From the IMG/VR virus record IMGVR_UViG_3300017971_000283, positions 5,527-69,526 of that record: a DNA stretch of 64,000 nt; one strand, given 5' to 3'. A model generated the notes under the pieces. It had not been told where the DNA came from, ran no database searches, and worked only from the letters and a program-made list of their open reading frames with translations. Positions 4,005-26,693 of this stretch are shown piece after piece. Within the stretch, counting starts at the first letter, position 1, and every line of letters starts with the position of its first letter. This DNA comes from a virus. Position numbers and translations under genes: made by a program.

Positions 4005-4370
4005 TTAAGTAGTTTTACTTGCTTGCCATTCCATGTGAACATTATCTAATGCTTTCACGAAACGACGAATTTTTTGTCTTTCTTCAAAATCCATTATTTG
4101 GTTCTCATCCAAATATCCGGTGATAGTTTGATAATCAATAGTTGAGGCTGAAAAGCCATCGCCGGTTTTATATAGACATAGTTCGCAATATATTTTGTAA
4201 ATATGTTGTACTCTTTCAAAATCTTGTTTAAGAGGTAATCTATCAACTTTCTTTTTACAGAGTCCATGTCCTTCATTTGCTTTTTTGATCCATTCTTGTA
4301 AGCCGCCAAAAGTATCTTCACCGGTTTTTTTATTTTTAATTTCTAAAATTACTCTGTAATAATCAGTGAG
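4005..4370 (-). CDS. Tail assembly chaperone extension (gpT-like), in frame with the upstream chaperone across a TGA
   Basis: 121 open codons LTDYYRVILE...STIDYQTITGYLDENQIMDFEERQKIRRFVKALDNVHMEWQASKTT*. It has no Met near its start and lies directly before the TMP gene. Confidence 0.75.
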   Translation of the reverse strand, partial: LTDYYRVILEIKNKKTGEDTFGGLQEWIKKANEGHGLCKKKVDRLPLKQDFERVQHIYKIYCELCLYKTGDGFSASTIDYQTITGYLDENQIMDFEERQKIRRFVKALDNVHMEWQASKTT

Positions 4371-4868
4371 TCAAGATTCTTCAAAATTATCTTTCTGAAT
4401 TTGAAAAATTTCTCTTTCAAGACTCATACTCAAAACAAATTCTTTAAATGCTTCAAGTTCAGGATCAGAAAGCCATTCATAGGCAGTTTTTACAGAGTAA
4501 GGAACCCAAGCATCAGGATTAGTAATTGTTTTTTTTGTAAAACTTTCACTTTCATCTTCAATAAAAAGTCGATTATAAATTTCCTCATGATTATCGGATG
4601 GCATATTTTCCCAATTCAAAATAATATGGGTTGCCGTTGCTTTATTTATATTTTCATTTACTACACTGTCAGGAATACTTTGTCCGAACCTAAGAGTTTT
4701 TAGATAAGGTTTGTTTAATTTTTTTACATAATCCTCATAATTTTTATTCCCATGCTTTGCAATTAGCACCTTGCTTCCATATTCTTCCATACCTGGAACC
4801 GGAACCCAAACGCCTTTTTCTGCCATTTTAAGATCATGACCCATTACTTTTTTGAGAGGATTTGCCAT
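4371..4868 (-). CDS. Tail assembly chaperone (gpG-like)
   Basis: Lies between the tail tube and TMP genes. True start MANPLKK follows AAGGAG. Contains GVWV, ILNWEN and PYS motifs typical of this chaperone class. Confidence 0.8.
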   Translation of the reverse strand: MANPLKKVMGHDLKMAEKGVWVPVPGMEEYGSKVLIAKHGNKNYEDYVKKLNKPYLKTLRFGQSIPDSVVNENINKATATHIILNWENMPSDNHEEIYNRLFIEDESESFTKKTITNPDAWVPYSVKTAYEWLSDPELEAFKEFVLSMSLEREIFQIQKDNFEES

Positions 4869-4941
4869 TGTTAATCTCCTTATTTTTTCTTTTTGATTTA
4901 GATTTAATAAAAATAATACTGTTAATAAAAAAAATATTTTA

Positions 4942-4996
4942 AAAAATGGACAGTGATAGTTAATTAAAAAAATATCTTCTATCACTGTCTATTTTT
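4942..4996 (-). terminator. Stem-loop after tail tube gene
   Basis: AAAATGGACAGTGATAG...CTATCACTGTCTATTTT inverted repeat followed by a U-run on the minus strand. Confidence 0.6.
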
Positions 4997-5000
4997 CCCT

Positions 5001-6383
5001 TTAATTACTTTTCTGAAACATAATCTGATAGTCATTTGTAGCTGAAACGCTTGCCTTCCAGGTCATGTTTTGCATAACATCAGCATTAACTCCTGTAGCT
5101 TGCCCACCAGGATTTTGCTGAATTTTTAGTCTTGGAATATATACTGCAATACTTTCGCCATCATTCCCAACAGACCTTACGGAAATTGAAAGTGCAGTAT
5201 TATTAATAAATTTTTCATAATATGTTTGACCATCAAAAAACATATTGAGATTACCAGTAATAGCAGAAAAACCAAACCCTACACCGGCATTACCTAACAC
5301 TCCAATACCAGACTGTCCTCTTGCATTATTGTTTAAAGTAAAGTTAAACTCTGAAATCAGAGTAGTGCCAAAAACAACTGGCGTATTGTCAATACTTAAA
5401 CTTGCAACATCTGATGTTGCATTCAAGGATTCATTAGTAGGCGCAGCAACAAGAGTACTATGAAAGGCTGAAGTATCAACATCAGTCGATACAAGATCAG
5501 CACCAATAAACTCCATACTCCCAGTAATAATAGCTTTACTTGTAAAAGTAAGAGTCATTTGACTTGGAGTCATTCCTCTAAAAAGAGTATATGCCCCAAC
5601 ATCATTATTAATTCGCTCAATACTAAAACTCTTTTTTGTTACTCCATCTTTCAAAAATGCAAATGGTACAAGATATCCGCTTGCAGCAACTTCATCGGTC
5701 AATGTTTCTTCTACTGTCAAATCAGTTGCCGTAACAGCAGATACAGTGACAACTTTATTATTAGTTGAAGTTGTGAATCCAACTAAAGTAATACACATTC
5801 CAACTTCAACTAGTGTTGTAAAATCATAAAGTGCTGCACTATTAATTTTCCCCGAAGCAATAGAAAGGTCACCCGGATCAATTACCCATCTTACATTTCC
5901 ATCAACAGTTTCAGTTGCAAGCGTATCATTCATTGTAAGTACAGTATCAGTCAATGAAAGAATTTCAAGAGAACCGGTATTTAGTGTTGAGCCTACAATT
6001 TGGACAAATTCACCGGCAGTAAATCTTTTTGTAAGATCAGTTACGCCAGCAATTTCAATTGTATCTGCTGTTACAGTACTTGTGACAGATCCCTGTGCTT
6101 TCCCATAAAAAGAATGAGCAAAAACACCTTCCAAAAGATCTTCATTCAAATTCTCAGTTGAAAGTTCAAAACTAACTGAACCTGATGGATTAGCTCCTAC
6201 AACAACCGCATCAAGACTTTTTCTATCACTCCTGATAGTATTTGAATCAGTTGTTTCAACGCCATGAGAAAGGCTTTCAGATGTAATACCGATTGATTTC
6301 ATTGTAGGTGTAGTTGGCAAAACACCAAAAGTAGTTTCTTTAATAACTGCAATATCAATTTGATTAGTTTCTGCAAAAGACAT
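5001..6383 (-). CDS. Major tail tube protein with internal accessory domains
   Basis: 460 aa. N-terminal ETTFG..P / SNTIRSDR / GSVSFEL and C-terminal FTLNNN / ITGNL.MFF / IPRLK motifs, strong AGGAGG SD, and position in the tail cluster. Confidence 0.8.
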   Translation of the reverse strand: MSFAETNQIDIAVIKETTFGVLPTTPTMKSIGITSESLSHGVETTDSNTIRSDRKSLDAVVVGANPSGSVSFELSTENLNEDLLEGVFAHSFYGKAQGSVTSTVTADTIEIAGVTDLTKRFTAGEFVQIVGSTLNTGSLEILSLTDTVLTMNDTLATETVDGNVRWVIDPGDLSIASGKINSAALYDFTTLVEVGMCITLVGFTTSTNNKVVTVSAVTATDLTVEETLTDEVAASGYLVPFAFLKDGVTKKSFSIERINNDVGAYTLFRGMTPSQMTLTFTSKAIITGSMEFIGADLVSTDVDTSAFHSTLVAAPTNESLNATSDVASLSIDNTPVVFGTTLISEFNFTLNNNARGQSGIGVLGNAGVGFGFSAITGNLNMFFDGQTYYEKFINNTALSISVRSVGNDGESIAVYIPRLKIQQNPGGQATGVNADVMQNMTWKASVSATNDYQIMFQKSN

Positions 6384-6385
6384 TT

Positions 6386-6550
6386 TTATTCCTCCTTAAT
6401 TCCAAAGATAATTAATTTTTTACACCTAGAACATTTTATTTGTAATTCAATAAGCGTAAAAACTTTTTGGATGTCGGAAGCTTTTTTTTTATACTTAAAA
6501 AGGAGCCTTCTGCAAAACTGACATCTAAAGTCTTTCAATTCATTGTCCAT
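6386..6550 (-). CDS. Mu Com-like zinc-finger protein (54 aa, below the ORF track cutoff)
   Basis: MDNELKDFRCQFCRRLLFKYKKKASDIQKVFTLIELQIKCSRCKKLIIFGIKEE matches the Com-family pattern RCxxCxxLL...IKCxRC. Confidence 0.7.
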   Translation of the reverse strand: MDNELKDFRCQFCRRLLFKYKKKASDIQKVFTLIELQIKCSRCKKLIIFGIKEE

Positions 6551-6583
6551 ATTATTACCTATTTTTTCTTTATTGTCAACTCA

Positions 6584-6994
6584 TTATGAAATATCATCAT
6601 AATAGAATTCAATTGTTATATTTTGTTGAATAAATCTTCCATTTTCACCAATATACCTTATATTTCTTTTTCTAAAAATTATTCCGTTTATATTTTTATT
6701 TCTAAAAATATTCTTTACTTTTGAAGTCAATTCTTGTAGCAATCTTTCACCGGTATCAATCAGAACATAAACAGAAATCATTAAAATACCATAAACCCTA
6801 TTTAGTGAAACATTACCCACATTCTCTTTATCTTCTTCTGAATATCTTACAACTGCCTTCAAAAATGGTTGATCTTGATCATCAACATTTGTAGGGATGT
6901 TCCCCCAAACAATTGGATAATCATTTGGATAAAGTAAAAGCCATTGTGTATTCAGATAAGTTTCAATTTCTTTATTTATTAAATTATAATTCAT
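6584..6994 (-). CDS. Tail terminator / tail completion protein
   Basis: 136 aa, located upstream of the tube gene, with a GILMISVY...GTG-like pattern. Confidence 0.65.
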   Translation of the reverse strand: MNYNLINKEIETYLNTQWLLLYPNDYPIVWGNIPTNVDDQDQPFLKAVVRYSEEDKENVGNVSLNRVYGILMISVYVLIDTGERLLQELTSKVKNIFRNKNINGIIFRKRNIRYIGENGRFIQQNITIEFYYDDIS

Positions 6995-7394
6995 TTAATG
7001 CCTCATTTAATTTATTTTCTAAAATCTGAATATTTGTTTCAACCATTCCAGTTGCAGCAATTTTAGGTGATCCATATTCAACAAAAACTAAGTATTCGAC
7101 ATTGTTTATATATGTAATGATACCACCTAATTTAAAGTTATCAAGTTTTTTTAAGTTTTTAATTGCTATTGCTATTGCTTCACTTTCTGATGATTCTTTT
7201 CCAATTCCTACTGGTTCAATATTTATACCTACATCCCATGAAGACTTTGAAAGACCAGTTTCAATTGGTGTTTCTTCTGCTATTTTACGAAAACCATCAA
7301 AAGCAATTTTTTTTGTAACTAATTCTATTTTTTGAAACTTCTCATCAACTTCTTTTTCTAAGTCATTAATAAAATTTTTAATTTCAATTTTCAT
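6984..7394 (-). CDS. HK97 gp10-like neck / tail-completion protein
   Basis: TPIETGLSKSSW and NNVEYLVFVEYGS motifs. Confidence 0.8.
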   Translation of the reverse strand: MKIEIKNFINDLEKEVDEKFQKIELVTKKIAFDGFRKIAEETPIETGLSKSSWDVGINIEPVGIGKESSESEAIAIAIKNLKKLDNFKLGGIITYINNVEYLVFVEYGSPKIAATGMVETNIQILENKLNEALNEL

Positions 7395-7405
7395 AATTAT
7401 TATTT

Positions 7406-7441
7406 TCCCATACTATAATTAAAAAAATTATAGTATGGGAT
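7406..7441 (-). terminator. Stem-loop
   Basis: TCCCATACTATAATT...AATTATAGTATGGGA inverted repeat between genes. Confidence 0.55.
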
Positions 7442-7447
7442 TCCATA

Positions 7448-7723
7448 TTATTTTTTTGCTTCCATTATTTGCTTAAGGATTTGACCTCTTGCAAGAATAT
7501 TCATACTACCTTCTTTTTCAAAAATCTCTTTAATTAAATTATAATCAGAAGTATCAACTTCAATTTTTTTATCTTTGTTTAACTTTTGAGCAATTTCAAG
7601 AATTTTAATAGCATTCCCATCAGGTCTTGCAACCATATAGTTTGCTGCTATAACTGCCATGTTTGAATCTTTAAGTATTTCACCGTTTAAATTTTTGATA
7701 TCATGATCTAAATCGATTTTCAT
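7448..7723 (-). CDS. Hypothetical virion-cluster protein (possible fibre-associated)
   Basis: 91 aa ORF with SD, in the operon after the fibre gene. Confidence 0.6.
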   Translation of the reverse strand: MKIDLDHDIKNLNGEILKDSNMAVIAANYMVARPDGNAIKILEIAQKLNKDKKIEVDTSDYNLIKEIFEKEGSMNILARGQILKQIMEAKK

Positions 7724-7758
7724 TATTCTTCCCCCTTTACTTTTTATTTCTTTATTTT

Positions 7759-8043
7759 CTAATCTTCTATTTCAAAAGTTAATTCTTCATATGTAACGGT
7801 TTCTTCTGCTGCTCTTTTTCTTACAGATTTTACTTTATTTGTAATTTCTCTTTGCAACATTCTATTAGCAAAATTTTTTTTTGATTCTGGATTTGGAATT
7901 TCTTCCCCTGTTTCTTGATTAATTATAGTTTCCTTATAATTATAATATGTAACATAATCATTGAGCATAACACTTTTTTTTGCATTGTCCCATGATAATG
8001 CGGGTTCCACTGAATTGATAAAGCCTATAATATCAACAGCCAT
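7759..8043 (-). CDS. Hypothetical virion-cluster protein (possible fibre chaperone)
   Basis: 94 aa, AGGAGGT SD, directly after the fibre gene. Confidence 0.6.
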   Translation of the reverse strand: MAVDIIGFINSVEPALSWDNAKKSVMLNDYVTYYNYKETIINQETGEEIPNPESKKNFANRMLQREITNKVKSVRKRAAEETVTYEELTFEIED

Positions 8044-8062
8044 TTTTTACCTCCTTTTTATT

Positions 8063-10435
8063 TTATGTTTCACCTAAATATTCAACTTTTAAATTGCCAT
8101 ATGCAACAGTGAAATTAATTGATCCGGCATTATCATGTCTAGCTCTTATATCAAGATCACTTGATGTTGTTACATCTATTATACCACTCATACTCATAGA
8201 TCCAATATCGTTTGCTGTTGAAATTTTCCTTTTCCAATGAATTTGATCTTGTTCAACCCCACCAAGAAAAGCGGATGCTAAAAATACAACATTAGCAGTT
8301 CCAGATGATCCCGATATCGAACAAACTACAGAATACCTACCCGGTTTTGTAATTGTAATTTTATTATTTGAGGCATCTGCTGTAATATTATTTGATTCGC
8401 CATTATTTGACCATGCCGTTAATTTAGTATATGTCGCACCAGTAGGGATACTTTGGGCAGTACTATTGTCATGGGTATAAATTTCAGCAAATGTACCGGG
8501 ATACGATATCTCACCTCCACTTGGAAGTATACTTAAATTTCCATCACTATCTACTTCAAAGTCAGTATAATCAACTGATAAAGTATTTGTTAATCTTAAT
8601 TGAGGATCGGTATCATTTACAATATTTAAAAAATCTGTGATATCAACTTGTATTTCTCCAGAAGCCTCTGTAATCCTTATTCCTTCAACTCCACCAGCAA
8701 TTAAAGATAATTGATCAGCACCCGCACGACCCATACCAGTATCAAAATCATTAGTAAATAAATGAACAGGTTTGGTAGCATTTGAACTCAATGCTGTTAT
8801 TGCAGCTCCACTACTACTACCTCCCAATAAATAGTATCCTTGTTCAAAAAGAAATCTCTGATACCCATTTAACGAAATACCAATTTTATTTGCTGCCGGT
8901 TGATAAAATCCTGTATTGTCATTGAAAAAAGATATTGATGGATTAGTAGCAGAACCAAGTGGGAAAAATACAGTATTTCCACTTGGAAGTATATTTAAAT
9001 TTCCATTGCTATCTACTTCAAAATCAGTATAGTCAGTTAATAAAGTATTTGTTATTCTCAATTGAGGATCGGTATCATCAACAACTTCAAATTTTCTTGC
9101 AGGGGAATAAGTATTTACTCCTGTATTACCAGCAAAATAATTCTTGTCATTAGAACCAGATTGATAAATACCATAAGCATCACTTATCGTATACATATTT
9201 GACTCTGGAATATTAAGTCCAGAATAACGAGTTACTGATCCAAGATAAATATACGGTGGAAATGCTCTAATTGCTGCTGCATCTACAATTGGATTTACTT
9301 CTGAACGACTAACATCCAATCGACCACCAATGCCAGTAGCTTCCTGCGTAGTTCCTTCAGAATTATTTTTCTGAAATACCCCAATAATACCAGCAGGACC
9401 AATGGTTGTATTAGTTGATACTGCTGTCAAATCATTGTTGGTTTGTACACTTATAAATCCCAAAATACTAAAATATGATGCATCTGAAGAAGATGTTGGT
9501 TGTATAGTTTTGAAAGAGCCAAATGAGTAAGTAAGTCCAGTATTTAAAATATCTGTATCTGCTATATGTAATCTATCTGAAGATGGAGATTGCGTACCAA
9601 TGGATAACCTTTCTGGTATATATACTTCTCCACTACTTGGAAGTATATTCAAATCTCCACCGCTATCTACTTCAAAATCAGTATAGCTTACAGCATCAAC
9701 ATTCGTTAATCTTAATTGAGGGATAAAATTATCAACAACTTCAAATTTTCTATTAGGCGTTTCAATTCCTATACCTAAAAATTTATTTGTATTGTCCCAA
9801 AATAAATCGGATTTACTTATTGGTGACCAAATACTTGTAGTTGCATTCCAATAATTTAATTGGCCTTGGTCTGTTCCATCTTCGATATTTCCACTCCCAC
9901 CACCAACCGGGACACCATTAATTTCAAGATTTTTTGTTGTATTATTATAAGATACTTCATTTAAAACATATCTACTTAAAGCTATATCCCACCAAGGAAT
10001 CGCTCCTTGAAAATACGTATCAGTTGGAGGAGGCACAATGCCTTGTGGAGAATCGCCCTGCTTTCTTATTTGAAAGGTGATTAAGGCCCCATAAGGGTCT
10101 TCAGTCATCTCATCTTCAATAACCCATTGTTGGTTATTATCATCGAACCAATCACCTTTTTTAGGATTGACTGCAAGACCATTATATACAAAATCTTTTT
10201 CAAAACATATTACTTTTCTATCAGATTGTAATATCTCATTGTTTTGTTTTTCTTCTATCGAAAATTCATCAGGAATAAGTCTGACACCTGGTATTTTTGC
10301 TGCCTGTACTGTTGAAGTACCGGTTTCAGGATCATAAACATTACCTATTAATTGAAAAAAACTGACGGTCTTTACAGCATCGCCAGCAATCCCAATTCCA
10401 ACCTCAATAAGGTTTTCAATTTCAGTAATATTCAT
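8063..10435 (-). CDS. Head-closure/head-tail joining domain fused to a repetitive fibre
   Basis: N-terminal ~125 aa (VYDPETG, ILQSDRKVI, DPYGALITFQIRK) resembles head-closure proteins. The remainder has three PQLR(L/I)TN....YTDFEVDS.G.L.ILPS.G repeats, GIG..P motifs and a beta-rich C-terminus. Confidence 0.65.
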   Translation of the reverse strand: MNITEIENLIEVGIGIAGDAVKTVSFFQLIGNVYDPETGTSTVQAAKIPGVRLIPDEFSIEEKQNNEILQSDRKVICFEKDFVYNGLAVNPKKGDWFDDNNQQWVIEDEMTEDPYGALITFQIRKQGDSPQGIVPPPTDTYFQGAIPWWDIALSRYVLNEVSYNNTTKNLEINGVPVGGGSGNIEDGTDQGQLNYWNATTSIWSPISKSDLFWDNTNKFLGIGIETPNRKFEVVDNFIPQLRLTNVDAVSYTDFEVDSGGDLNILPSSGEVYIPERLSIGTQSPSSDRLHIADTDILNTGLTYSFGSFKTIQPTSSSDASYFSILGFISVQTNNDLTAVSTNTTIGPAGIIGVFQKNNSEGTTQEATGIGGRLDVSRSEVNPIVDAAAIRAFPPYIYLGSVTRYSGLNIPESNMYTISDAYGIYQSGSNDKNYFAGNTGVNTYSPARKFEVVDDTDPQLRITNTLLTDYTDFEVDSNGNLNILPSGNTVFFPLGSATNPSISFFNDNTGFYQPAANKIGISLNGYQRFLFEQGYYLLGGSSSGAAITALSSNATKPVHLFTNDFDTGMGRAGADQLSLIAGGVEGIRITEASGEIQVDITDFLNIVNDTDPQLRLTNTLSVDYTDFEVDSDGNLSILPSGGEISYPGTFAEIYTHDNSTAQSIPTGATYTKLTAWSNNGESNNITADASNNKITITKPGRYSVVCSISGSSGTANVVFLASAFLGGVEQDQIHWKRKISTANDIGSMSMSGIIDVTTSSDLDIRARHDNAGSINFTVAYGNLKVEYLGET

Positions 10436-10438
10436 ATT

Positions 10439-11200
10439 TTACCCTCTACCAATTTCAATATTTGATCCACTTATTACTTGACCATAATTTTTTAAGTAAT
10501 CACTTACTTGACTTGGCATTTTCGGAATTGAATCATAATTATTAAAAGCAAAAGCCATTGCTCCAAGTTTCATTGACTTTACTCCTGTTGTCCCTGAAGG
10601 AGCAGTCACATCACTTTTTATTAAAACCAAAGCGTATTCAGCAGTTGCATATTTTATTGCATCATCAATAAAATTAATTGACGTTTCAATTCTTCCAGTG
10701 TCAGTATAAAAATAACAAGCCTTAAAAGTATATTTATTAGGAACCTTATCAAAAATTCTAAAATATAATGCATCGTTTCCAATTGAATCAATATCGCCAG
10801 ATCCATATTCACCTATTTCTAAATAATTGGAAGCTTCAACATATCCTTTTGCAAGTTCAATTCCATCCAAACTTAATTTATCAAAAGTTGGATTACTATC
10901 AAGATAATATAATGAACTATCAACACTTGATTGAGTCCATGTTCCGGTCACATCATCACTATATAAATCTAAAATCGAATTATAAAAAGGTGCAGGTAGC
11001 TTTTGATTTTGATTTAGTGGTGAGCTTGAAAATCTAACTTGTTGAATAATTAAATTAGTTGCCCATATTAATGCTGACTTTTTATCAGCATTAGAGGCAC
11101 CACTCCAATCGCTTTTATGAAGACGATTCGAGTGGTAGTCATCTGCCTCATATAAAGATATAAAACTGTCAGTATCTGGGCCTGCTGTTAGCAGATTCAT
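10439..11200 (-). CDS. Head-tail adaptor (DnaT-like ssDNA-binding family annotation)
   Basis: SFISLYEADDYH..R...W...KKSALIWAT and IKYATAEYAL motifs, located after the capsid genes. Confidence 0.7.
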   Translation of the reverse strand: MNLLTAGPDTDSFISLYEADDYHSNRLHKSDWSGASNADKKSALIWATNLIIQQVRFSSSPLNQNQKLPAPFYNSILDLYSDDVTGTWTQSSVDSSLYYLDSNPTFDKLSLDGIELAKGYVEASNYLEIGEYGSGDIDSIGNDALYFRIFDKVPNKYTFKACYFYTDTGRIETSINFIDDAIKYATAEYALVLIKSDVTAPSGTTGVKSMKLGAMAFAFNNYDSIPKMPSQVSDYLKNYGQVISGSNIEIGRG

Positions 11201-11424
11201 TATTTTACTTTCTTATAAAAAGTATTTACAGTTTTATCAAAATTTGTTCTTATATCGTCTTTTTCAACAAACGTCCCCATCATTGAATCAAAATATCTCG
11301 CAATACAAACTTCAGTTTTTTTTATTTGTTTTTCATCCATACCCATTTCAATTACTTCCGGATTATCTTCAACTTCTTCCAGATTATCTTTAACTTCTTC
11401 AACTTCTTTTTTTAGCCTTGCCAT
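11200..11424 (-). CDS. Hypothetical protein
   Basis: 74 aa ORF with SD, translationally coupled to the adaptor gene. Confidence 0.55.
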   Translation of the reverse strand: MARLKKEVEEVKDNLEEVEDNPEVIEMGMDEKQIKKTEVCIARYFDSMMGTFVEKDDIRTNFDKTVNTFYKKVK

Positions 11425-11481
11425 TTTTTTAACTCCTTTTTAAAAAAGGTTTCTAAGAACTCTCAAATACAGGTAAATTCT

Positions 11482-11886
11482 TTATACAGGCGAATCATCC
11501 AACCATGCGTTTACTTTTCCTGCTGTAGTTGTAGCAGTAGCAATCACATATTTGACTCTCATATACCGTTTTGAAACAAAATTACCATCGAACGGTTTGT
11601 TCATTACTACAGCACCAAGAGTAAGTGCTGTAATTGCAGTTGCAGCAACAGAATGAATTGTTACCGGTGAAGTAAATATTTCATCAGTGGCATGTTCAAC
11701 AGTGAATGCCACTGTAGCACCAGCACCAACAAAAGCTTCTGAAACTGTAATATGAGTAAAAATAGGTGCGCCAACACCCAGTTTCAGATCAGTTGCAGTT
11801 TGAAGGTCAAGTACATTACTATAATATGTCCCTGCAACCTGAGCCAAATCTTGATTATCACTCATTGTCAATTTAAGGTCTTTCAT
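11482..11886 (-). CDS. Capsid cement/decoration protein (Bbp16-like)
   Basis: SNVLDL...GVG.P...V.EAF...KRYMRVKY...TAGKVNAWL pattern, immediately after the MCP. Confidence 0.8.
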   Translation of the reverse strand: MKDLKLTMSDNQDLAQVAGTYYSNVLDLQTATDLKLGVGAPIFTHITVSEAFVGAGATVAFTVEHATDEIFTSPVTIHSVAATAITALTLGAVVMNKPFDGNFVSKRYMRVKYVIATATTTAGKVNAWLDDSPV

Positions 11887-11944
11887 GAAACCTCCTTATT
11901 ATTAAAAAATTAATTTATTAATCAAAAATAATTAAAAACCAATA

Positions 11945-12892
11945 TTAAGTTACTGCACTTTCAGCGACCAAAGCTTCCATTTTCTTGACCGGCGTACCCT
12001 GATACATAGCTACCTGACGACCAAAAGGATTATTTACATCGTAAGAAACATTGGTTTTGTCCCGAGCAAATACATCAAAATAACCGAGCAATTCTTTAGG
12101 AGCATAAATTACTGAACCTGCCCCATCATTAGGCATATTTCGAAGTGCAATACTCAATTTTTGGGAAGCTGCATCAAGTTTTGTAATATCGATATTACAA
12201 ACCCTTTGAACTTTCCTATCATCACGAACAACAATACCGGGACGAACAGAAAACTGAGTTTCATAGGCTTTATATTTGGCGCTATTAGCATCTGTTACAT
12301 CGACAAGTCCATTGTCTCGCTGCCTAATACCAAGCATAGGATCATTTTTCGGATATACTAGATGAACATCAATACCCCATTGAATAATCCAAAAAGAATA
12401 CATTGTACCTGACCCACCAGCACTATGAACATTATCAAGTGCAAGAGCATTATATCGATTAGCAAAGCCTGTAATCTGATTGGGATTCACTGCTCGGTTT
12501 CCATAAACCATTGCAGATGCAAGGGTCTGCCCCATACCTTCAAGGAAGGCAAGATCTTCAATTGCTCTATATTGAGCTTTGTCAGGTGCAGAATTGACTT
12601 CATGTTCATCAATCTGGCTATAGCCTTCCAGAAGTCCAATAGGTTCTTCTTCCATAACTGTATGAGATCTTTCACGGGCAACACCCTGATTCAACGCTCG
12701 CCAAGTTCCAGAAGGCAAACTTGTTCTCTTACCAAAAGAATGAGAATTTTCAGAACTTGATGCCAACCAAGGAGCATCGTCCCACATAGCATTTGTTTTA
12801 TTAAGAGTCTCAACAATTGGAGTAAGTACTCCATTATTGATTCTCTTAGCAAAATCAAGAATTGTCAACATATTACTAATAATTGTACTCAT
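11945..12892 (-). CDS. Major capsid protein (BPP-1/epsilon15-like HK97 fold)
   Basis: LTILDFAKR, IVETLNKTN, RTSLPSGTWRALNQGV, EDLAFLEGMGQ, VQRVCNID motifs. Confidence 0.88.
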   Translation of the reverse strand: MSTIISNMLTILDFAKRINNGVLTPIVETLNKTNAMWDDAPWLASSSENSHSFGKRTSLPSGTWRALNQGVARERSHTVMEEEPIGLLEGYSQIDEHEVNSAPDKAQYRAIEDLAFLEGMGQTLASAMVYGNRAVNPNQITGFANRYNALALDNVHSAGGSGTMYSFWIIQWGIDVHLVYPKNDPMLGIRQRDNGLVDVTDANSAKYKAYETQFSVRPGIVVRDDRKVQRVCNIDITKLDAASQKLSIALRNMPNDGAGSVIYAPKELLGYFDVFARDKTNVSYDVNNPFGRQVAMYQGTPVKKMEALVAESAVT

Positions 12893-12904
12893 ATTATATC
12901 TCCT

Positions 12905-13699
12905 TTATTGCATAGTTGGATACATTTGACCCAACAATGTTTGAGGATCAGGAGCATCGGATGTTCCACCTTGACCTGATCCACTGGGTTTGTTATTTTT
13001 CAAAAAAGCATCCTTTGATGGATGTGATTTGACCAAAAGTTCAACCAATTCATCTCCTACAGCAGGCTCACCTGGAGTTTTTTGCGAAAGGATATCAAGA
13101 TCATTTTGACCGACTCCATATATAGTTCTTTTTCCATTTTCTTCTCTAATCCTAATTTGATCAGAAAAAGCTTTGTAAGCTATATCAGGAGGCATATGCG
13201 TTTCATCTTTAATGAAAGACGAATTGAAAAAAAGTCTTTCAACCAAATAATTATCAAAATCAGTTTTTGTTTTTTTGATCTGAGCATCTCTTTCTTCAAT
13301 TTCTTTTTTATACATTTCCTCTTGTGCTGTTATCTTGCTTTTCCAAGCATCATCTGTTAGCTTTCGCTTTTCTTCAAGTTCTGCTGCTGTTTTTGTTTCT
13401 TTATCACTTAAACCATCGATAGTTGCACGATCTGTTAATGCTTGTTCCTTGAACTTAGCAAAATCTTCAATATCGCCCATCAACTCTTTAAGCTTTGTCA
13501 ATTCATCGCTCATTTCTTTCTTTGCTTTTCTTGCTTCTGCCTCAATCTCTCTTTGCTTCTTCATTGTTGCCATGACCCTATCTCCATCATGCGGAGCTTC
13601 ATTTTGATTTTCAGGATCAATGAGAATAGGCAAAATAAGTCCATCTTCTGTTTTTACAGTTACAAGTCCTTGACCATCTTCTGTAAGTTTATACGGCAT
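12905..13699 (-). CDS. Capsid scaffolding protein
   Basis: Coiled-coil, acidic, ends SGSG...LYPTM-like, directly upstream of the MCP. Confidence 0.75.
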   Translation of the reverse strand: MPYKLTEDGQGLVTVKTEDGLILPILIDPENQNEAPHDGDRVMATMKKQREIEAEARKAKKEMSDELTKLKELMGDIEDFAKFKEQALTDRATIDGLSDKETKTAAELEEKRKLTDDAWKSKITAQEEMYKKEIEERDAQIKKTKTDFDNYLVERLFFNSSFIKDETHMPPDIAYKAFSDQIRIREENGKRTIYGVGQNDLDILSQKTPGEPAVGDELVELLVKSHPSKDAFLKNNKPSGSGQGGTSDAPDPQTLLGQMYPTMQ

Positions 13700-13788
13700 T
13701 TTCTTTTCCTTTTTTAATGGTTATCGTTTACCTTGAAACGACATAAATTATTTTACTTTTTACCTTGAAAAAGTTAGACAATAGTTTA

Positions 13789-13862
13789 TTAACATATGTT
13801 AAGAATTAACATATGTTAAATTTAATATATAAGTGCATTAACACATGTTAAGTTTGTTGTCA
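13789..13862 (-). promoter_or_regulatory. Putative capsid-operon promoter with three palindromic operators
   Basis: TTAACATATGTTAA at 13789-13802 and 13806-13819, TTAACACATGTTAA at 13838-13851, and a minus-strand TTGACA at 13857-13862. Confidence 0.55.
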
Positions 13863-13937
13863 AGTTATTTGAATTTAATAGTTAAACTTTTCGATTTTTA
13901 TTGGTGAAGTTAAAGAGGAAAAGGAAACTTGGTTCAA

Positions 13938-15065: not shown

Positions 15066-15266
15066 TATATCTCCATATTTTTATTATTTTTATTCATCGA
15101 CAACACCTAAAGTTAAGGCATTACATGAAGTTTTTTGATGTCTAATGGAAAAATTATAATAATTACAATTATTTAACTTTTTATTTGTTTTCTATAACTT
15201 TATTTGCAATTTCCCGCATCTCACTTTTCGGTATTCCACTTATTTTAGAAAGAATTTTAACCATTA

Positions 15267-15878: not shown

Positions 15879-15887
15879 TTGTTTTCC

Positions 15888-16286
15888 TTATTTATTAATT
15901 TCGCCTTTTGTACTATCTTTTGCTGAACTTTTACCAAATATTCTAACTGCCCAATAAACCCATAATGCTCTTATTTTCCACATTCCATATTGAATACATT
16001 CTTTATACAAAAATTTATCAGCTTTTATTCTTAAACTTAATGGCAATTTTTTCTCTCTAAATAATTGATAAAAAGCATCATGAACAAGACTTGCTTTTAT
16101 AAATGCCTCAGTATCAATAGTTGGACCACTTGGGCCATCCCAAGAATATCCCTGAAAAATTACCATATTTCCGGTTTTATTTAAACCAATAAACTTATTG
16201 TTAGCAGAAAAACCGGTTATATTTGTTTCAACAAAATAGTTTTCAGTTAGCTGATACTTATATTTCCTGAGTTTCCTGTATTTCAT
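15888..16286 (-). CDS. DUF1353-like protein
   Basis: GYSWDGPS...ASLVHDAFYQ...AD..L...G...RA...YWAVR.FG. Confidence 0.7.
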   Translation of the reverse strand: MKYRKLRKYKYQLTENYFVETNITGFSANNKFIGLNKTGNMVIFQGYSWDGPSGPTIDTEAFIKASLVHDAFYQLFREKKLPLSLRIKADKFLYKECIQYGMWKIRALWVYWAVRIFGKSSAKDSTKGEINK

Positions 16287-17757: not shown

Positions 17758-17772
17758 TTTATTTTTCCTTTA

Positions 17773-19221
17773 TTATCCTTGTATTGATCCATAAAAACAT
17801 GAATATGATTTACTTAAAATTTCATATCTTACTGCATCCCACATATGATCTTCACTATCACTATCAACATCATCCATATTTGAAGGATTTCTGGGGATAT
17901 TTGGAACAGTTCTTAGAAATTGCTCACAATTATTAAAAACAAAAAAACCTGGATATTCCATACTTCCTTTAGTAATTAAATCATTTGAGCTTTCTAATAA
18001 ATCCCTCATAAGCTCTACGCCTTGAACTCTTGAGTGAGGTTTTTTATTTGCCCATTCCCAAGTAATATTACAACCATCAATTTTTAGCTCTGCCATTTTA
18101 TCAGCAATTGTTCTTTCCCCCGGTGACGAGCTAAAAATCTGATTATCTGCTGGTCCTGGTCTTATCCTACCAATATTGAATTTTTTTTTCAATATTTTTT
18201 CTTTAATCAATATTGATTCAGCTATTTTTTTTGGAGTATGGTTGACCCCTTTATTTTCCTTGCCTGTCCATCCGTAAACTTCATCAATTAAAAATAAAGT
18301 CCCTTTTGGAAATGATCTTATTTTATTATTTATTTTTACCGGCGTACCATCTGACTCAGCAAAAAATGGTACTGCATAAGGGGCTGACGACCCCCAATCA
18401 AACGATCTTTCAACTTTCCAATAGGTAGGTATATCAAAGGGCTCAACTACGTGGATTTCAGGTGCCCAGAGATCACTAAATGCCCCTCCTGCTACAATAT
18501 CCCAGGAACCTTCATACCATGCTTTTCTTTTATTTGGATCAGTTATTGATTTTAACTTATTAATATATTTTGGATCATTTTTAAGTAAAATTTTATTCTC
18601 TTGTACATTCCCATGGATTCTTACTCTTCTATTTTCATCCTTATCTGTAATAATTTTTCCGGCTGGTGCTGGATCAACAAAATACTTTTTTACCCACGCA
18701 TGACCAACTCCATAACTATTTGTTGTAGATCTTGTTCTTGGGATAATTCCTGGGCCGCTTGCTCTCAAACAAGATTTATTCATTGACTCATAACATTCAA
18801 TATCTTTCCAGTTTGTTAATTCCTCCCATCCAATCCAACTAAATTCTTTTCCATGATATACCGCATAATCCTGAATATTCCTCATATAAGAAAGAAAAAG
18901 AACTTCACCTTCAGGAAAAGTCCATGACATAGCTGAAGCATTAAATTTTGCCCTTGGCTCAATTAATGAAAACCACTTTTTTGTTTTAAGTACAATATCA
19001 CTTAACTGTTTGTATGTATTTCTAAAAAGTATTCCTCTCCAATCAGACTTAAACCCCTTATTACAGTCTTGATAAAAATCCATTATTAGTGAATCAGTTT
19101 TTCCATTGCCTCTTGTCCCATCAAAAAGAACTTCTTCTATAGGACAAGAAAGAAAAAACAATTGAGAACCAGCTTGTGGTACCCATACTGCATCTTTTAT
19201 ATAATTACTATAATCATTCAT
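17773..19221 (-). CDS. terL: Terminase large subunit
   Basis: Walker A GTRGNGKT, Walker B IGWEEL, nuclease SFDWG and EDHMWDAVRY. Confidence 0.93.
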   Translation of the reverse strand: MNDYSNYIKDAVWVPQAGSQLFFLSCPIEEVLFDGTRGNGKTDSLIMDFYQDCNKGFKSDWRGILFRNTYKQLSDIVLKTKKWFSLIEPRAKFNASAMSWTFPEGEVLFLSYMRNIQDYAVYHGKEFSWIGWEELTNWKDIECYESMNKSCLRASGPGIIPRTRSTTNSYGVGHAWVKKYFVDPAPAGKIITDKDENRRVRIHGNVQENKILLKNDPKYINKLKSITDPNKRKAWYEGSWDIVAGGAFSDLWAPEIHVVEPFDIPTYWKVERSFDWGSSAPYAVPFFAESDGTPVKINNKIRSFPKGTLFLIDEVYGWTGKENKGVNHTPKKIAESILIKEKILKKKFNIGRIRPGPADNQIFSSSPGERTIADKMAELKIDGCNITWEWANKKPHSRVQGVELMRDLLESSNDLITKGSMEYPGFFVFNNCEQFLRTVPNIPRNPSNMDDVDSDSEDHMWDAVRYEILSKSYSCFYGSIQG

Positions 19222-20041
19222 TATTTAATCTTTTCCAATATGTTGGCCTATTATTCCAAAGTCTTGTTTTTATCTTTTCATATCCTAAGGATCGCATTTC
19301 TCTATTAAATATTCGAGATATTTTATCATTAGTTATAAATGCTCCATGTTTATCAGCATATATATTAAAGTGTCCTATAGCTCTAGTGTTAAATGAATTT
19401 GCAATCAAGAAATACCTTGGAGACAATTTTCTAACAATTTCGTGTAAATGATAAATTGGATATTGTATATGTTCAAAATATTCTGATGCAAAAATTAAAT
19501 CAATATCTTTTGAAATATTATCGATTTCGTAACAAATGTCAAATTGATATTTATTTTTTATAACTTCAATAAATTTGGATTGTTTTGTAAATTCAATATT
19601 TGTTCCAATTACATTTGAATTAGGGAAAGTTAATTTTAATGCGGCAGATGTATATCCAATACCACATCCCAAATCAACAATATTTTTAACTTTTTCTAAA
19701 TCTTTTTTTATAGAAGTATCAAATAATGACTTTCTATCTGATATTGCCATTATATATTTCCGTGAATATACTCTCCAGCATGCCCATAATTCAGATAGAT
19801 AATAATCGTGGTCATATAAATTAAAATCAGGGTTGTTATTTTCTAATGATTTATACCATAAATTTTCAAGTTGTTGACTTTCTTTTAAACTTTTTCTTAT
19901 ATTACCATTTCCATTTAAGTATCTTATAGTATTTTTTGCAATATTATAAATCCTACCTATTTTTGCTTCTGGATTTATTTTTTTATAGATCAATAAAAAT
20001 CTTTTTAATCCATCATCTGATCTTTCATTTAATATATTCAT
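19214..20041 (-). CDS. Class I SAM-dependent methyltransferase
   Basis: IVDLGCGIG SAM motif and DLIFASEYFEHI motif. Overlaps both neighbouring genes. Confidence 0.8.
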   Translation of the reverse strand: MNILNERSDDGLKRFLLIYKKINPEAKIGRIYNIAKNTIRYLNGNGNIRKSLKESQQLENLWYKSLENNNPDFNLYDHDYYLSELWACWRVYSRKYIMAISDRKSLFDTSIKKDLEKVKNIVDLGCGIGYTSAALKLTFPNSNVIGTNIEFTKQSKFIEVIKNKYQFDICYEIDNISKDIDLIFASEYFEHIQYPIYHLHEIVRKLSPRYFLIANSFNTRAIGHFNIYADKHGAFITNDKISRIFNREMRSLGYEKIKTRLWNNRPTYWKRLNNE

Positions 20042-20874
20042 TTTTTCTTCAACTCCATATTGTAATTATCTATACCCTTTTCTATTTTTACACCTTCTTT
20101 TTTTATTAACTTATTTTTTTTAAATTGACTATAATTTACTGAATGTTGCCATCTTCCCCATTTTCTTACAACTTTTGTAACATCAGGATGTTGTCTTTGT
20201 AATGATCTTGCCATTTCAAGCCTACCATCAAAATTAGAGTCTTGTTTATAAAGTTCATCAGTATTCCCACCTTTCATTACCATTGTTGTTGTTTTTTCAA
20301 CTAGAAATGCATTAAATAAAATTGTACACCATCCTCCCTTTAAAGCTCTTAAACATAAGTCAGTATCTTCATTATATTTTCCTCTCCATCTATATTTCAA
20401 ACTATTATTTACTAAGATGCAAGAATAAATACGAGTATTTATTCTAAATGGCACATCTTTCCATTTTTGCCTAACAAACATAAAGTATTGTGGGCCTGAA
20501 AAAGCAATATTTGTATATCTATCTGTGAAATCTTCCATTGCTTTAAATATCATAGGTGAAAATACTTTTAATTTTCTATTTTTATTCCACCTATGAAATC
20601 CTCTCATATTATCATCCATTATCCAATGTCTTTCATGACCTTCTTCTAAAGAATGTTTCCAAACAAAATTTCTTGCTGGTATTGATCCCTTTCCCAAATT
20701 ACTAAAAGGCAAAACTATTATTTTTTTTGGATCAATAACATTAGAATATTCGTCAAATTCTTGAGGCTCAATAACTATTCTATAAGGACAATTCATCTTT
20801 TCAAGAGCTTTACTTGTTAATCTGCTTTCCCATCGTCCTTTAGAAATAATGTATATTGGATATTTATTTTTCAT
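20038..20874 (-). CDS. GT-A fold glycosyltransferase (TET-associated/GREB1-like type)
   Basis: PIYIISKGRW, IVIEPQE, ARNFVW, WIMDDN, NEDTDLCLR, MKGGNT motifs. Confidence 0.8.
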   Translation of the reverse strand: MKNKYPIYIISKGRWESRLTSKALEKMNCPYRIVIEPQEFDEYSNVIDPKKIIVLPFSNLGKGSIPARNFVWKHSLEEGHERHWIMDDNMRGFHRWNKNRKLKVFSPMIFKAMEDFTDRYTNIAFSGPQYFMFVRQKWKDVPFRINTRIYSCILVNNSLKYRWRGKYNEDTDLCLRALKGGWCTILFNAFLVEKTTTMVMKGGNTDELYKQDSNFDGRLEMARSLQRQHPDVTKVVRKWGRWQHSVNYSQFKKNKLIKKEGVKIEKGIDNYNMELKKK

Positions 20875-21800: not shown

Positions 21801-22460
21801 TTAATTTTCTCCTATACTATCAAAAATTATTGGGACTTGTTTTTTTACATCTTCTAAGCAATTTTTCATTAATTTTCTTATTTGTGGATGAGCTTGTTTT
21901 GAAGTTCTTAATTTAAAAATATGTTTCCACTCTCTTAAATTTGCAGTCATAATTATTTCGGTTTTCAAACTGTTGGGCAATACTTCTCTCGCTTGTTCCG
22001 GTCTCCATCCATTATTAATTAAATTATTATAATCAAATTTTGAATTAAGACAAGATTGAAGAAAAACTTTGTGGGTGAAAGGGATATCATCTTTAAAAAA
22101 AATACATGAAGTTTCTTTATACTTTCCCAAATACTTTTTATCCATCCAAACAGGGAGAATGAAAAGTATATCTCGGTTTTTGTAATTAATATAACGGGTT
22201 GACTCAACAGATAAAGAACAAATCCTATGTCTTGCAATCTCCTGTAAGACTCCTCGATTTGTAATAAACTTAATAGTAATTATAGCATGTTCAATTACCG
22301 ATTCATGTCCCTTATTGATAATCATTTTAGTAAATTTTTCAGATGATTCTTTATTAATTTTGGACTCGCTTTTATAGCAAGTCCGTCCAGCTTTCTCAAT
22401 TAATTCAAGAGGACAATTATCAATTTTTATAATTTTATGACTTTGTTCAATTATCTCCAT
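21801..22460 (-). CDS. thyX: FAD-dependent thymidylate synthase
   Basis: AGRTCYKS, GHESVIEH, RHRICSLSVESTRY, AREVLP, NLREW, AHPQIR. Confidence 0.95.
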   Translation of the reverse strand: MEIIEQSHKIIKIDNCPLELIEKAGRTCYKSESKINKESSEKFTKMIINKGHESVIEHAIITIKFITNRGVLQEIARHRICSLSVESTRYINYKNRDILFILPVWMDKKYLGKYKETSCIFFKDDIPFTHKVFLQSCLNSKFDYNNLINNGWRPEQAREVLPNSLKTEIIMTANLREWKHIFKLRTSKQAHPQIRKLMKNCLEDVKKQVPIIFDSIGEN

Positions 22461-22492
22461 ATATGTTCTCCTTAATTAATTTCTTTTATTTA

Positions 22493-23545: not shown

Positions 23546-23566
23546 TTTTTATTTGAATATAAAGCC

Positions 23567-24398: not shown

Positions 24399-24446
24399 CT
24401 TTCATTCTGATTTTTCTGCATTTCAATTTCTTTATTTTTCAACTCT

Positions 24447-24672
24447 TGTTTAATACGCATCATTTAAACAATCTCTTCCATTGAATGTTTTAAGTTTTGT
24501 TTTATATTTTTCAAATCCCATTTTTACTCTTGCTTCAATATCTTTTATTACAGCCTTTTTTAATATAGACGACTCAAAAGCAAAACCAATGTCCTTGATT
24601 ACTTCTGGCACAACTTCTTTTTCCTTTTATTGGATCTGGTTCCGGGGTTGCTGCTTTAATATTTAATTTCAT
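24447..24672 (-). pseudogene. Degenerate MazG-like (GRD..DAY) phage gene
   Basis: MKLNIKAATPEPDPIKG, then a frameshift in GGAAAAAG to EVVPEVIKD...DIEARVKMGFEKYKTKLKTFNGRDCLNDAY* with a premature stop. Confidence 0.5.
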
Positions 24673-24811
24673 ATCAAATTACCTTTTATTAAAGTTTAAT
24701 TTTCAAAACTTGACTATGTAGATGTTAAATATCTCAACTAAGATTAGTATATCATAAAAACAAAAAAGGTGTTGTAAAAAATCGATATTTTTAGAAAAAA
24801 CTAGAGATTGA

Positions 24812-25039
24812 CTATTTGAATGGATCTTCCATCTTATCAATATCAGTTTTAATAAAAGCAATAATTCCCTTCAATCTTCCTTCAATATGTTTCAATGTTA
24901 TTCCATTTTCATAAAATTTTATTATTACTTTTATTAAATCTCTATGGAAACTTGGTATTTCATAATCTTCATTTTTCATTAATTTTACTATTTGAGAATA
25001 ATGTTTTGGTTTTAGCCTATAACAAAATTGATTATTCAT
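24812..25039 (-). CDS. Small protein, possible regulator divergent from the plus-strand operon
   Basis: 75 aa with AAGGGAG SD, transcribed divergently from 25281. Confidence 0.5.
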   Translation of the reverse strand: MNNQFCYRLKPKHYSQIVKLMKNEDYEIPSFHRDLIKVIIKFYENGITLKHIEGRLKGIIAFIKTDIDKMEDPFK

Positions 25040-25280
25040 TGTTATTAACTCCCTTATTTTGAATAAATATCAATTCTTATAAGTTACTAATTATAATTTT
25101 GTCAATCTGTTTTGAATTTTTTTGAATTCAATCGAAAACCTATAGATTTTTTCAGAATAACTTGAATTCAAAATCTATAACTATATCAATGCGTTATATT
25201 GACGATAATATTTTTATTTGATACCTTTTTAAAAAATCGAAAGGTAAAACCTTCCTGCTACAATAATCATAAGGAGAGAC

Positions 25281-25775
25281 ATGATGACAGACCAACAAGT
25301 AGAAAAGAAAGAGCCCGTCTATATTGAGTCAAACACAAATGATATTTTAAGACAATCTGAAGAAAGGCTTTTAGCTACTCAAAAAGCATTATTTAATGCT
25401 AATATGCGCCAATACCAATTAAACCAGCAATTTCAAAATCCTTATAATCAAAATCCTTATAATCAAAATCCTTATAATCAACAATATAGTAATCAACAGA
25501 ATCAACAACCACAACAACCTAAACCTGAACCACAACCTAAACAAAGACAAGAAAATTTAACACTATCAATGCTTAGTGTTATCGAACAACTCCATGCATT
25601 GCTAGAAATTTATAGTAATATAAATCCGACTATATATCCGGAACATCTAAAAAAACAAACAATAAAAGAAATTGAGCATTTGCGATCCTTTCAAACTCGT
25701 TTTAATGAAAATCCAATAGAGTCAAAAAGGATCTTAACCCTGGTGTCAAATGAAATGGCACCCAAACAAAATTAA
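25281..25775 (+). CDS. Q/N/P-rich low-complexity protein
   Basis: AAGGAG SD and (NPYNQ)x3 encoded by a 15-bp tandem repeat. Confidence 0.75.
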   Translation: MMTDQQVEKKEPVYIESNTNDILRQSEERLLATQKALFNANMRQYQLNQQFQNPYNQNPYNQNPYNQQYSNQQNQQPQQPKPEPQPKQRQENLTLSMLSVIEQLHALLEIYSNINPTIYPEHLKKQTIKEIEHLRSFQTRFNENPIESKRILTLVSNEMAPKQN

Positions 25776-25790
25776 GTAAAGGAGATTGTT

Positions 25791-26693
25791 ATGGACACAA
25801 CACCTGGTGGAAGTATTGGAACTGGAGATGCCGCCGTACTTGCTTTGCTTGCCGACACTGCAAGAGCAGGTAGAGGTGGCGGTTGGGGAGTAGGCGGTTG
25901 GGGAGGTGAAGGTGGAGGTTATGGAAGTGCTTATGGTAATATTGCAAACGCCGTAAGACTTGACCGAAATGCCCAACAAACTGAAGATCAGGCTGATTGT
26001 ACAAGAAATCTTTTCGGGCAAGCTTTTTCGAGTATTCAGAATGCTTTTGAAAATGGTACTCGTGACAGGCAGCAAGCAGCATTGTCCAGTCAGATTACAA
26101 ATGGCGAGTTCAGGATTTCTGACAGACTGCGAGATACTGAACTCAATTCTGTTCGGGAATCTGCTGATTTGGCACGACAGATTGCTGCTTGCTGTTGTGA
26201 TACTCAAAAAGGTTTTCTGGAACAAGCTCTGAGACAGCATGAATGTTGTTGTGAAACTCAAAAAGTAGTAATGCAGGAAAATCAGAAAACTCGTGATCAG
26301 ATTATGGATAATGAATTGCGACGAGCTACTGATGCAAATAACATCAATGCTACTGTAGGAGCAATCAATGGTGCTGCTGCTGCGAATACTGCTGCTATTA
26401 TTGCCGCTATTCGTGAAGGACACCATCATCCTCGTCCATGAAATAACGGACACTGCCCTTGCGGTGGTGGAAACGGTGGTGGCGGGGATAATGTTATGCT
26501 GTGTCATCAACCAGGGACACCAGCTCAACAAACTTTAATCGTACCACCTGAAGCAGTTGAAGGACATTTAAGGCATGGTGACTACTTGGGGGAATGCAGA
26601 CCATTGGCGGTAAACGAGAAAAAGCCGGAAGAAATAAAAAAGCCGGGAACAATAAAGAAAGAAAAACCGTCAATAGTTACAAACCCGAAATAA
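25791..26693 (+). CDS. Gly/Trp- and Cys-rich coiled-coil protein (ends 26441) with probable in-frame UGA readthrough into a CH...HLxHGDYLGxC domain (ends 26693)
   Basis: AAGGAG SD, GGGWGVGGWGG, ACCCDTQK and ECCCETQK. The frame continues HHHPRP*NNGHCPCGGGNGGGGDNVMLCHQPG...HLRHGDYLGEC. Confidence 0.7.

Follow-up and report, generated by a model that had tools for sequence, protein, structure and literature searches.

The stretch of DNA analysed here, referred to below as the window, comprises 64,000 nucleotides (nt) of a virus, bases 5527-69526 of the 69,526-bp IMG/VR record IMGVR_UViG_3300017971_000283, which is estimated to be 77% complete (CheckV). On its minus strand, next to the gene of the tape measure protein, lies the gene of a tail assembly chaperone comparable to gpG/gpGT of phage lambda, and the reading frame of this gene continues behind a single in-frame UGA codon (4868..4008). 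A second extension of this kind follows a gene on the plus strand (25791..26693). An initial annotation of the window had noticed both extensions and proposed that they belong to one phage-wide layer of translational control built on leaky UGA stops; both are indeed present. Our results suggest, with moderate probability, that the two cases are different in nature: the chaperone extension would be reached by UGA readthrough, which would replace the -1 frameshift used for such genes, the second case would probably consist of two genes, and a genome-wide UGA layer would not exist.

The chaperone locus

We looked at the genes surrounding the first UGA, all of them on the minus strand. The tail tube protein (T5 pb6-like; 5001..6383; PF18906 Phage_tube_2, E 1.7e-34; phrog_290, E 1.3e-49) is encoded directly upstream of the short form of the chaperone, G, which has 165 amino acids (aa) (4374..4868; phrog_8233, E 1.7e-14; phrog_313, E 3e-7). 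G starts at the ATG at 4868, with AGGAG 8 nt before it; an alternative start is the GTG at 4985, where the 204-aa form given by the lister of open reading frames (ORFs) begins. The UGA that ends G (4371..4373, context TCT TGA CTC) forms the junction between G and T and is the proposed leaky stop. Behind it, the T extension runs in frame 0 for 121 sense codons (4008..4370; phrog_3817 'tail chaperonin', E 5.7e-5) and is closed by a TAA (4007-4005) and a TGA (4004-4002). The tape measure gene comes next (2..3958; phrog_1533, E 2.8e-62; PF10145, E 2.3e-34) and runs off the window. The G/T pair is flanked in this way by the tube gene and the tape measure gene, the usual position of chaperones of the G/GT type.

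A HMMER search of 1.84 billion proteins revealed 162 homologues of G at E <= 1e-3, nearly all of them 125-190 aa long and aligned to residues 1-165. The C-terminus of G aligned with the C-termini of 19 homologues; therefore, the UGA at 4373-4371 is the natural end of G. We also noticed that G carries an insertion of ~28 residues (residues ~93-121) before a conserved 'PYS' motif. Sixteen of the 19 aligned homologues have no insertion at all, and the remaining three have different ones.

The T extension matched the T-type ORF P0172, with an E-value of 1.9e-4 across the same protein library and of 4e-15 in a pairwise comparison, as well as the T ORF of the IMG/VR locus L006 (pairwise E 4e-4). This homologue of T ORFs lacks an initiation signal of its own, with no ATG, GTG or TTG until codon 86 of the 121. 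Codon usage was scored as a log-likelihood trained on 23 long genes, taking 74 genuine coding windows of 121 codons as reference. The extension scored +0.34 in frame 0 and -0.49 and -1.31 in the other frames; the reference windows scored 0.55 +/- 0.15, with a minimum of 0.146, and their off-frames never rose above -0.32. The chance of finding 121 open codons is between ~6e-5, using the gentler off-frame stop frequency, and 8e-6, using base composition.

Stop-to-stop ORFs at the locus included no alternative frame overlapping the end of G, and no X_XXY_YYZ slip site was found before its stop, where the sequence reads GAA GAA TCT TGA CTC. A terminator-like site was not found between G and T. Considering that T has no start codon until codon 86, no slip site and no overlapping frame, a G-T fusion can, as far as is visible, arise only through decoding of the UGA.

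Other candidate routes were tried and rejected. A +1 slip at TCT TGA C leads into a frame that stops after 8 codons, the A7 run at 4334-4328 lies behind the stop and is ruled out as a slip site, and initiation inside T is ruled out by the lack of a start codon or Shine-Dalgarno (SD) motif.

We also asked whether the stop could be a sequencing or assembly error. The G protein ends at the same residue in the ENA, JGI and Logan gene calls, and a Logan contig of 23,065 nt (depth ~13) showed 0 differences over window positions 1-1475 and 1603-20000. Two sequencing runs gave contigs of the same length and nearly the same depth; these runs are probably one data set filed twice and possibly the source sample, and none of the runs listed was of RNA. 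The Logan contig excludes an assembler artefact, but it is not an independent biological replication.

The G-T junction in relatives and proposed UGA readthrough

We compared the locus with 18 distinct relatives, namely the IMG/VR loci L006 and L008 and 16 GenBank phages (BL57, Cp1R7A-A1 and 14 others spread across the family of homologue P0070, which is present in 262 records); L007 and L011-L013 were dropped as duplicates of L006-L008. In L006 and L008 both G and T are homologous to those of the window. Results showed that all 18 relatives have T in the -1 frame, which overlaps the G terminus and stays open for 95-152 codons past the G stop. In 15 of them a slip heptamer precedes this stop either directly or at a distance of one codon (A_AAA_AAC in 7, G_GGA_AAC in 8). 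As no such heptamer occurs in the last 12 bases in FP1, Clover and Sonora, these three must shift further upstream. The zero frame behind the G stops of the relatives is open for 0-101 codons, the longest stretches being found in GC-rich DNA. A joined coding sequence is annotated in 4 of the 16 GenBank records, so that the joined product is under-annotated in most of them.

Immediately behind the slip site, the -1 frame encodes K-K-L-T-E-Y in L006 and K-K-L-I-E-V in L008, and the window reads E-E-S-stop-L-T-D-Y. Since L-T-D-Y aligns with L-T-E-Y and L-I-E-V, the stop of the window stands at the junction lysine of the relatives, and T is at once in register behind it.

From this arrangement a mechanism can be proposed. 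Most ribosomes would terminate at the UGA (4373-4371), which yields the short chaperone G (165 aa), while a small fraction would read the codon as sense and continue for 121 codons, giving G-X-T. The decoder would most likely be a near-cognate tRNA-Trp acting at the weak UGA-C context. UGA-C is the weakest context for release factor 2 (RF2) in E. coli and is also the context of the prfB recoding site, and it is rare among the TGA stops of the genome studied here (2 of 23). By analogy with lambda gpGT, the T domain would recruit the tube protein to the complex of tape measure and G; a complex prediction for the T extension with the tube protein gave no verdict on this (score 0.00). Such readthrough would take the place of the -1 programmed frameshift of the relatives at the same junction and would keep the same low ratio of long to short product. 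In lambda, the G:GT ratio is given as 30:1 (PMC5009743), and UGA readthrough of 6% is described for wild-type B. subtilis, as is the insertion of Trp at UGA in enterobacteria (PMC7918605). Because the required output is small and background readthrough by tRNA-Trp is documented, low-level readthrough could suffice.

The tail-chaperone frameshift is conserved among long-tailed phages (Levin 1993; Xu, Hendrix and Duda 2004, 2013, 2014, cited in PMC5009743). In such pairs T is found in the -1 frame, rarely in +1 or -2, and is reached from a slip heptamer close to the G stop. The window resembles lambda gpG/gpGT in the gene order tube, G, T, tape measure, in the expected pair of an abundant short and a rare C-terminally extended product, and in an extension without a start; moreover, its G and T are homologous to those of relatives that frameshift. 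Unlike in lambda, a slip heptamer is missing and T follows a UGA in frame 0, so the fusion would arise by readthrough and not by frameshifting. The lambda assembly chaperone is absent from virions. A comparison can also be made with the coat protein and A1 of Q-beta, where a UGA is read by tRNA-Trp at a few percent. Here too a single leaky UGA would separate an abundant structural-type protein from a rare, functionally required long form; however, Q-beta is an RNA phage and its case concerns a virion protein, whereas the window belongs to a double-stranded DNA phage and concerns an assembly chaperone, and no sequence relationship exists between the two. Recoded phages, such as crAss-like and Lak phages, are described as reading a stop as sense in a late gene as well. 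Those recoded at TAG or TGA are described as having many in-frame stops and usually a suppressor tRNA, in contrast to the one site (at most two), 23 TGA stops and 0 tRNAs of the window.

Taken together, the balance tips slightly toward a lineage of double-stranded DNA tailed phages in which the near-universal -1 frameshift of the chaperone was swapped for programmed UGA readthrough, with the stop placed at the junction position. As judged from the sequence, the phage probably sets one late-protein isoform ratio, that of the chaperone, via UGA decoding. Several points weigh against this reading. Readthrough is deduced solely from the lack of any other route to T, and the stop rests on one population. 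The likeness at the junction concerns four residues only and comes from a MAFFT alignment, BLASTP supporting just the last ~50 residues. No stable RNA structure that could act as a stimulator was found downstream of the UGA (fold z +0.15). The missing 23% of the record could hold a suppressor tRNA. Finally, a close relative was not found: 0 IMG/VR loci were obtained for G, T or the tube protein, and the distant relatives use a frameshift in place of a UGA. An IMG/VR scan with the best G homologue (P0066) gave no relative, scans with the T family returned the same three distant loci only, and a word-index protein search retrieved only the window's own protein. Three alignments of the analysis (A1, A4 and A8) were too diverse for pattern scans.

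We considered whether the locus could instead be a dead end, where the frameshift site was lost through mutation, in a defective variant or by a consensus error, and T is not made. The use of the -1 frame by all 18 relatives examined would agree with such a loss, as would a stop that rests on probably one data set and the lack of a stimulatory structure past the UGA. However, no remnant of the slip heptamer is left while T is still open and coding-like, and therefore a recent loss is unlikely; T stays open for 121 codons in 30%-GC DNA (chance <=6e-5), with coding-type codon usage and its family motifs kept. Moreover, a one-base error would shift T out of frame and not place it exactly in frame behind the stop, no variant is listed at the site at a depth of ~13, and lambda tail assembly requires GT (PMC5009743). 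We consider a dead end quite improbable on these grounds. Slightly less probable still is the decoding of the UGA by a dedicated factor, which could be a suppressor tRNA encoded in the missing part of the record or by the host, a weak or absent host RF2, or a selenocysteine insertion system. The incompleteness of the record leaves room for it, and phages carrying suppressor tRNAs for stop-codon recoding are described; on the other hand, ARAGORN found 0 tRNAs in 69.5 kb, and with 23 TGA-ended ORFs an efficient decoding of UGA would lengthen many proteins. As there is no significant RNA structure past the UGA, neither a selenocysteine insertion sequence (SECIS) nor a stimulator is evident at the chaperone junction, and no SECIS family of Rfam was matched.

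Readthrough of the chaperone UGA, which we prefer to both alternatives, would have several implications. In the full-text literature, subscription journals and supplements being outside the scope of the search, no description of a readthrough-dependent tail chaperone came to light, and passages of the PRFect paper (PMC10274946) and of the Atkins review (PMC5009743) deal with frameshifts only for tail chaperone genes. If true, this would be the first readthrough-type G/GT system, as far as the literature searched shows. Few recoding events known are as conserved as the G/GT frameshift, and annotation tools search for a frame change only; annotators should then also test the zero frame behind the chaperone stop. 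It would further mean that selection maintains the proportion of two nested products rather than the recoding mechanism, readthrough being able to substitute for frameshifting. In addition, the junction would offer a natural bacterial readthrough signal to measure, TCT UGA C, without downstream structure.

The extension on the plus strand

The second extension belongs to a module of three genes on the plus strand. The first gene is rich in Q, N and P (25281..25775). The second one encodes a Gly-rich coiled-coil protein of 216 aa with two CCC motifs and a His-rich tail, here called the CCC protein, and runs from the ATG at 25791 to the TGA at 26439-26441, in the context CCA TGA A (25791..26441). 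Behind this stop, the frame is open for 83 sense codons (26442-26690) up to a TAA (26691-26693). It first crosses a G-rich spacer of 18 codons (26442..26495; 55% GC), which contains the SD-like motif GGGGAT (26484-26489), and then a small ORF of 65 aa with its own ATG (26496..26693; 'MLCH...HGD..GEC'). A hairpin followed by a T-run, read from the sequence, comes after the small ORF (26742-26770).

The search for relatives of the CCC protein gave 61 homologues of 175-251 aa, each covering at most 74% of the 300-aa form that readthrough would produce. Eighteen aligned homologues end within ~10 residues of the His-rich tail; therefore, the UGA at 26439-26441 is the natural end of the CCC protein. 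Homologues of this family come mostly from metagenome assemblies and share the invariant motifs AACCC..Q and CCCETQ as well as a His-rich C-terminus. The protein has no Pfam family, its nearest ESM Atlas clusters are unnamed viral ones, and it may be a metal-binding coiled coil.

A genome scan with this second case gave two distant, near-identical loci. Scans of IMG/VR and of JGI metagenomes returned one locus each (L004 and L005), and these are the same contig. This contig carries the same three-gene module and is the only informative relative. It conserves the first gene (34% identity to the L005 homologue) and, at the same position, an ORF homologous to the small ORF of the window (pairwise E 2e-5). 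In L004 the stop of the CCC homologue is likewise a TGA, with C as the next base. After 7 open codons in the same frame comes the ATG-GTG of the small ORF, whose start falls within one codon of the window ATG. GGGGAT or GGGAAT stands 6-8 nt upstream of the small-ORF start in the window and in L004. Two more distant homologues of the CCC protein end in TAA and are not followed by a small ORF. A scan with the upstream gene 25281..25775 gave no locus, a word search found no database relative of the small ORF, and the 300-aa form had no match in GenBank phages.

We folded the region 26425-26530. In the predicted structure, GGGGAT (26484-26489) pairs with ATCCTC(G) (26428-26434), which belongs to the final codons of the gene before it, at -36.5 kcal/mol (z -1.70; 9/200 shuffles as stable). 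Such masking of the SD-like motif is a weak hint of translational coupling and would account for the G-richness of the spacer as well. Coupling via an SD-masking hairpin is a general feature of bacterial and phage operons, and the locus resembles it in three ways: the spacer is short, the weak SD-like motif is expected from the fold to pair with the terminal part of the preceding ORF, and the small ORF has an ATG of its own. It is unlike established coupling in that the fold is weakly better than shuffles and the L004 spacer is different and shorter.

The CCC protein and the small ORF are most likely two separate genes sharing a frame by happenstance. Translation of the small ORF would begin at its own ATG and might be coupled to termination of the preceding gene by the hairpin hiding its SD-like motif. 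Two observations stand against this reading: L004 also has a TGA, in frame and open to the small ORF, so that the frame and the kind of stop are shared by both loci, and the spacer of the window is G-rich with Gly codons, like the N-terminus of the CCC gene. The same features would fit true readthrough, in which a minor 300-aa form fuses the CCC protein to a small Cys/His domain: both loci combine a weak SD with a TGA and a stop-free in-frame spacer (18 codons in the window and 7 in L004, lengths that differ by a multiple of three), the 55%-GC spacer rich in Gly codons looks coding-like, and some distant homologues end in Cys/Gly/Pro-rich tails. We nevertheless judge such a fusion unlikely. 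Only two loci are concerned and they share ancestry, the rough chance for L004 alone being 0.05-0.2. The spacer is conserved neither in length nor in sequence, while the start codon of the small ORF is. None of the 61 homologues carries the domain as a fusion, distant homologues do without the small ORF, and the base rate of in-frame neighbours is high (10 of 100 ORFs behind TAA or TAG). Furthermore, the G-rich spacer can be read instead as the 3' arm of the SD-masking hairpin. As for selenocysteine, the hairpin at this stop matched no SECIS family and is absent from L004. In its boldest version, readthrough would make the CCC protein and the small ORF a second readthrough unit, in a phage exploiting a host with leaky UGA more than once.

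The segment 25281-27681, which contains this module, is the only plus-strand island of the window and shows a higher GC content and opposite GC skew. It also contains a 70-aa ORF and the gene of a ferritin-like protein (26897-27418, PF00210, E 1.4e-12). In L004 its first three genes are likewise found together, and the island looks like an acquired module.

UGA stops and gene content of the genome

We assembled a rough gene set of 100 ORFs and took as extension the open in-frame codons behind each stop. The stop is TAA in 70 of these ORFs, TGA in 23 and TAG in 7. Extensions of at most 38 codons were found for 21 of the 23 TGA-ended ORFs (at most 2 codons for 5 of them), and a third long UGA extension was not found in this group, in line with the statement of the initial annotation that the genome is not recoded. 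The UGA stops at 20038, 35977 and 59925, which the initial annotation had taken as real, are indeed so, with extensions of 2, 4 and 6 codons. The usual pattern of stop-codon reassignment, with many in-frame TGA codons, few true TGA stops and a suppressor tRNA, is not seen here, considering the 23 TGA-ended ORFs out of 100 and the 0 tRNAs. A C after TGA is rare, being present at 2 of the 23 TGA stops and, for all stop codons, at 3 of 100.

At least 40 open in-frame codons follow the stop in 12 of the 100 ORFs, and in 10 of the 12 this stop is TAA or TAG. In 7 of these 10 the frame simply enters the next gene, whose start codon lies 0-5 codons past the stop; for example, the ORF 10439..11200 continues in frame into a 790-aa gene. 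Because open in-frame stretches are common in a packed genome, a single-stop extension counts only if the downstream frame is not translatable alone. By this measure the chaperone extension stands, with its first ATG, GTG or TTG at extension codon 86, and the extension of the CCC protein does not, with an ATG at codon 18. This calls for caution in packed phage genomes, where roughly a tenth of the ORFs share their frame with the gene behind them and a single-stop extension alone is weak evidence.

The initial annotation had joined both extensions in one layer together with a Com-like zinc finger, start-masking hairpins, tRNA-like small RNAs and an RNA ligase. The RNA-ligase-family gene is there (55255-56148; PF09414, E 8.2e-16). 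A 54-aa zinc ribbon with a double CxxC is also encoded (6389-6550, minus strand), but its assignment to Com is borderline, just under the family cut-off (PF10122, E 8.5e-5, 22.4 bits against 22.9). The tRNA-like RNAs did not bear out: ARAGORN found 0 in the window and 0 in the whole 69,526-bp record, including relaxed settings, and Rfam gave 0 matches at gathering scores. A suppressor tRNA, sought beyond the window, was likewise absent from the whole record, and the extensions of the TGA-ended ORFs added no case to the two known.

That leaky UGA stops, the Com-like ribbon, masking hairpins, small RNAs and the RNA ligase form one system embracing both extensions appears very improbable. Its ingredients are in part real, since two in-frame UGA extensions exist, the single relative of the second case also has a TGA with an open in-frame spacer, the borderline Com-like ORF and the RNA-ligase-family gene are present and the small ORF may have its SD-like motif masked by a hairpin. 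However, the two stops differ in context (TCT TGA C and CCA TGA A), the 23 TGA-ended ORFs include no third case, and there are 0 tRNAs and 0 Rfam families. The small ORF has its own start and all 61 homologues of the CCC protein are unextended, in a genome where in-frame continuity is common behind TAA or TAG (10 of 100 ORFs); nothing ties the Com-like ribbon or the RNA ligase to stop-codon decoding. The suggestion that isoforms are tuned via UGA is thus retained for the chaperone, where a leaky UGA is the only visible route from G to T, and is given up as a phage-wide layer, the second case being better explained as two genes. A chaperone gene was not detectable in the L004 record, a 24,993-bp fragment and the only relative with the module of the second case.

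The Com-like ORF (6389-6550) sits between the tail terminator and tube genes, with its stop 2 nt before the tube ATG. It resembles Com of phage Mu and could act as a translational activator of the block of tube, chaperone and tape measure genes.

The window has a GC content of ~30% and carries almost all of its genes on the minus strand. Pfam and PHROG scans of the window revealed the gene content of a siphophage, with structural and packaging genes (T5-type tube protein, tape measure, GP7-type capsid, portal and terminase), genes for nucleotide metabolism and DNA modification (ThyX, a dCTP-deaminase-like protein, a TET-associated glycosyltransferase and methyltransferases) and replication genes (DNA polymerase III alpha, clamp loader, DnaB-like helicase, RecA and FEN). 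No GenBank phage matched the window at the nucleotide level. Protein identity of GenBank phages to the window is only 24-36%, and the capsid protein shares at most 36% identity with any cultured phage.

The segment 47394-54809 on the minus strand encodes a replisome of the bacterial type, in which a DNA polymerase III alpha bearing a PHP domain is joined by a clamp-loader subunit, a DnaB-like helicase and a product with a weak match to beta clamps; this is unusual at a genome size of ~90 kb. Also on the minus strand, the genes of the S-adenosylmethionine-dependent methyltransferase (19214-20041), the TET-associated glycosyltransferase (20038-20874, E 1.8e-46), ThyX (21801-22460) and the dCTP-deaminase-like protein (35977-36492) are close neighbours and together suggest hypermodified DNA bases.

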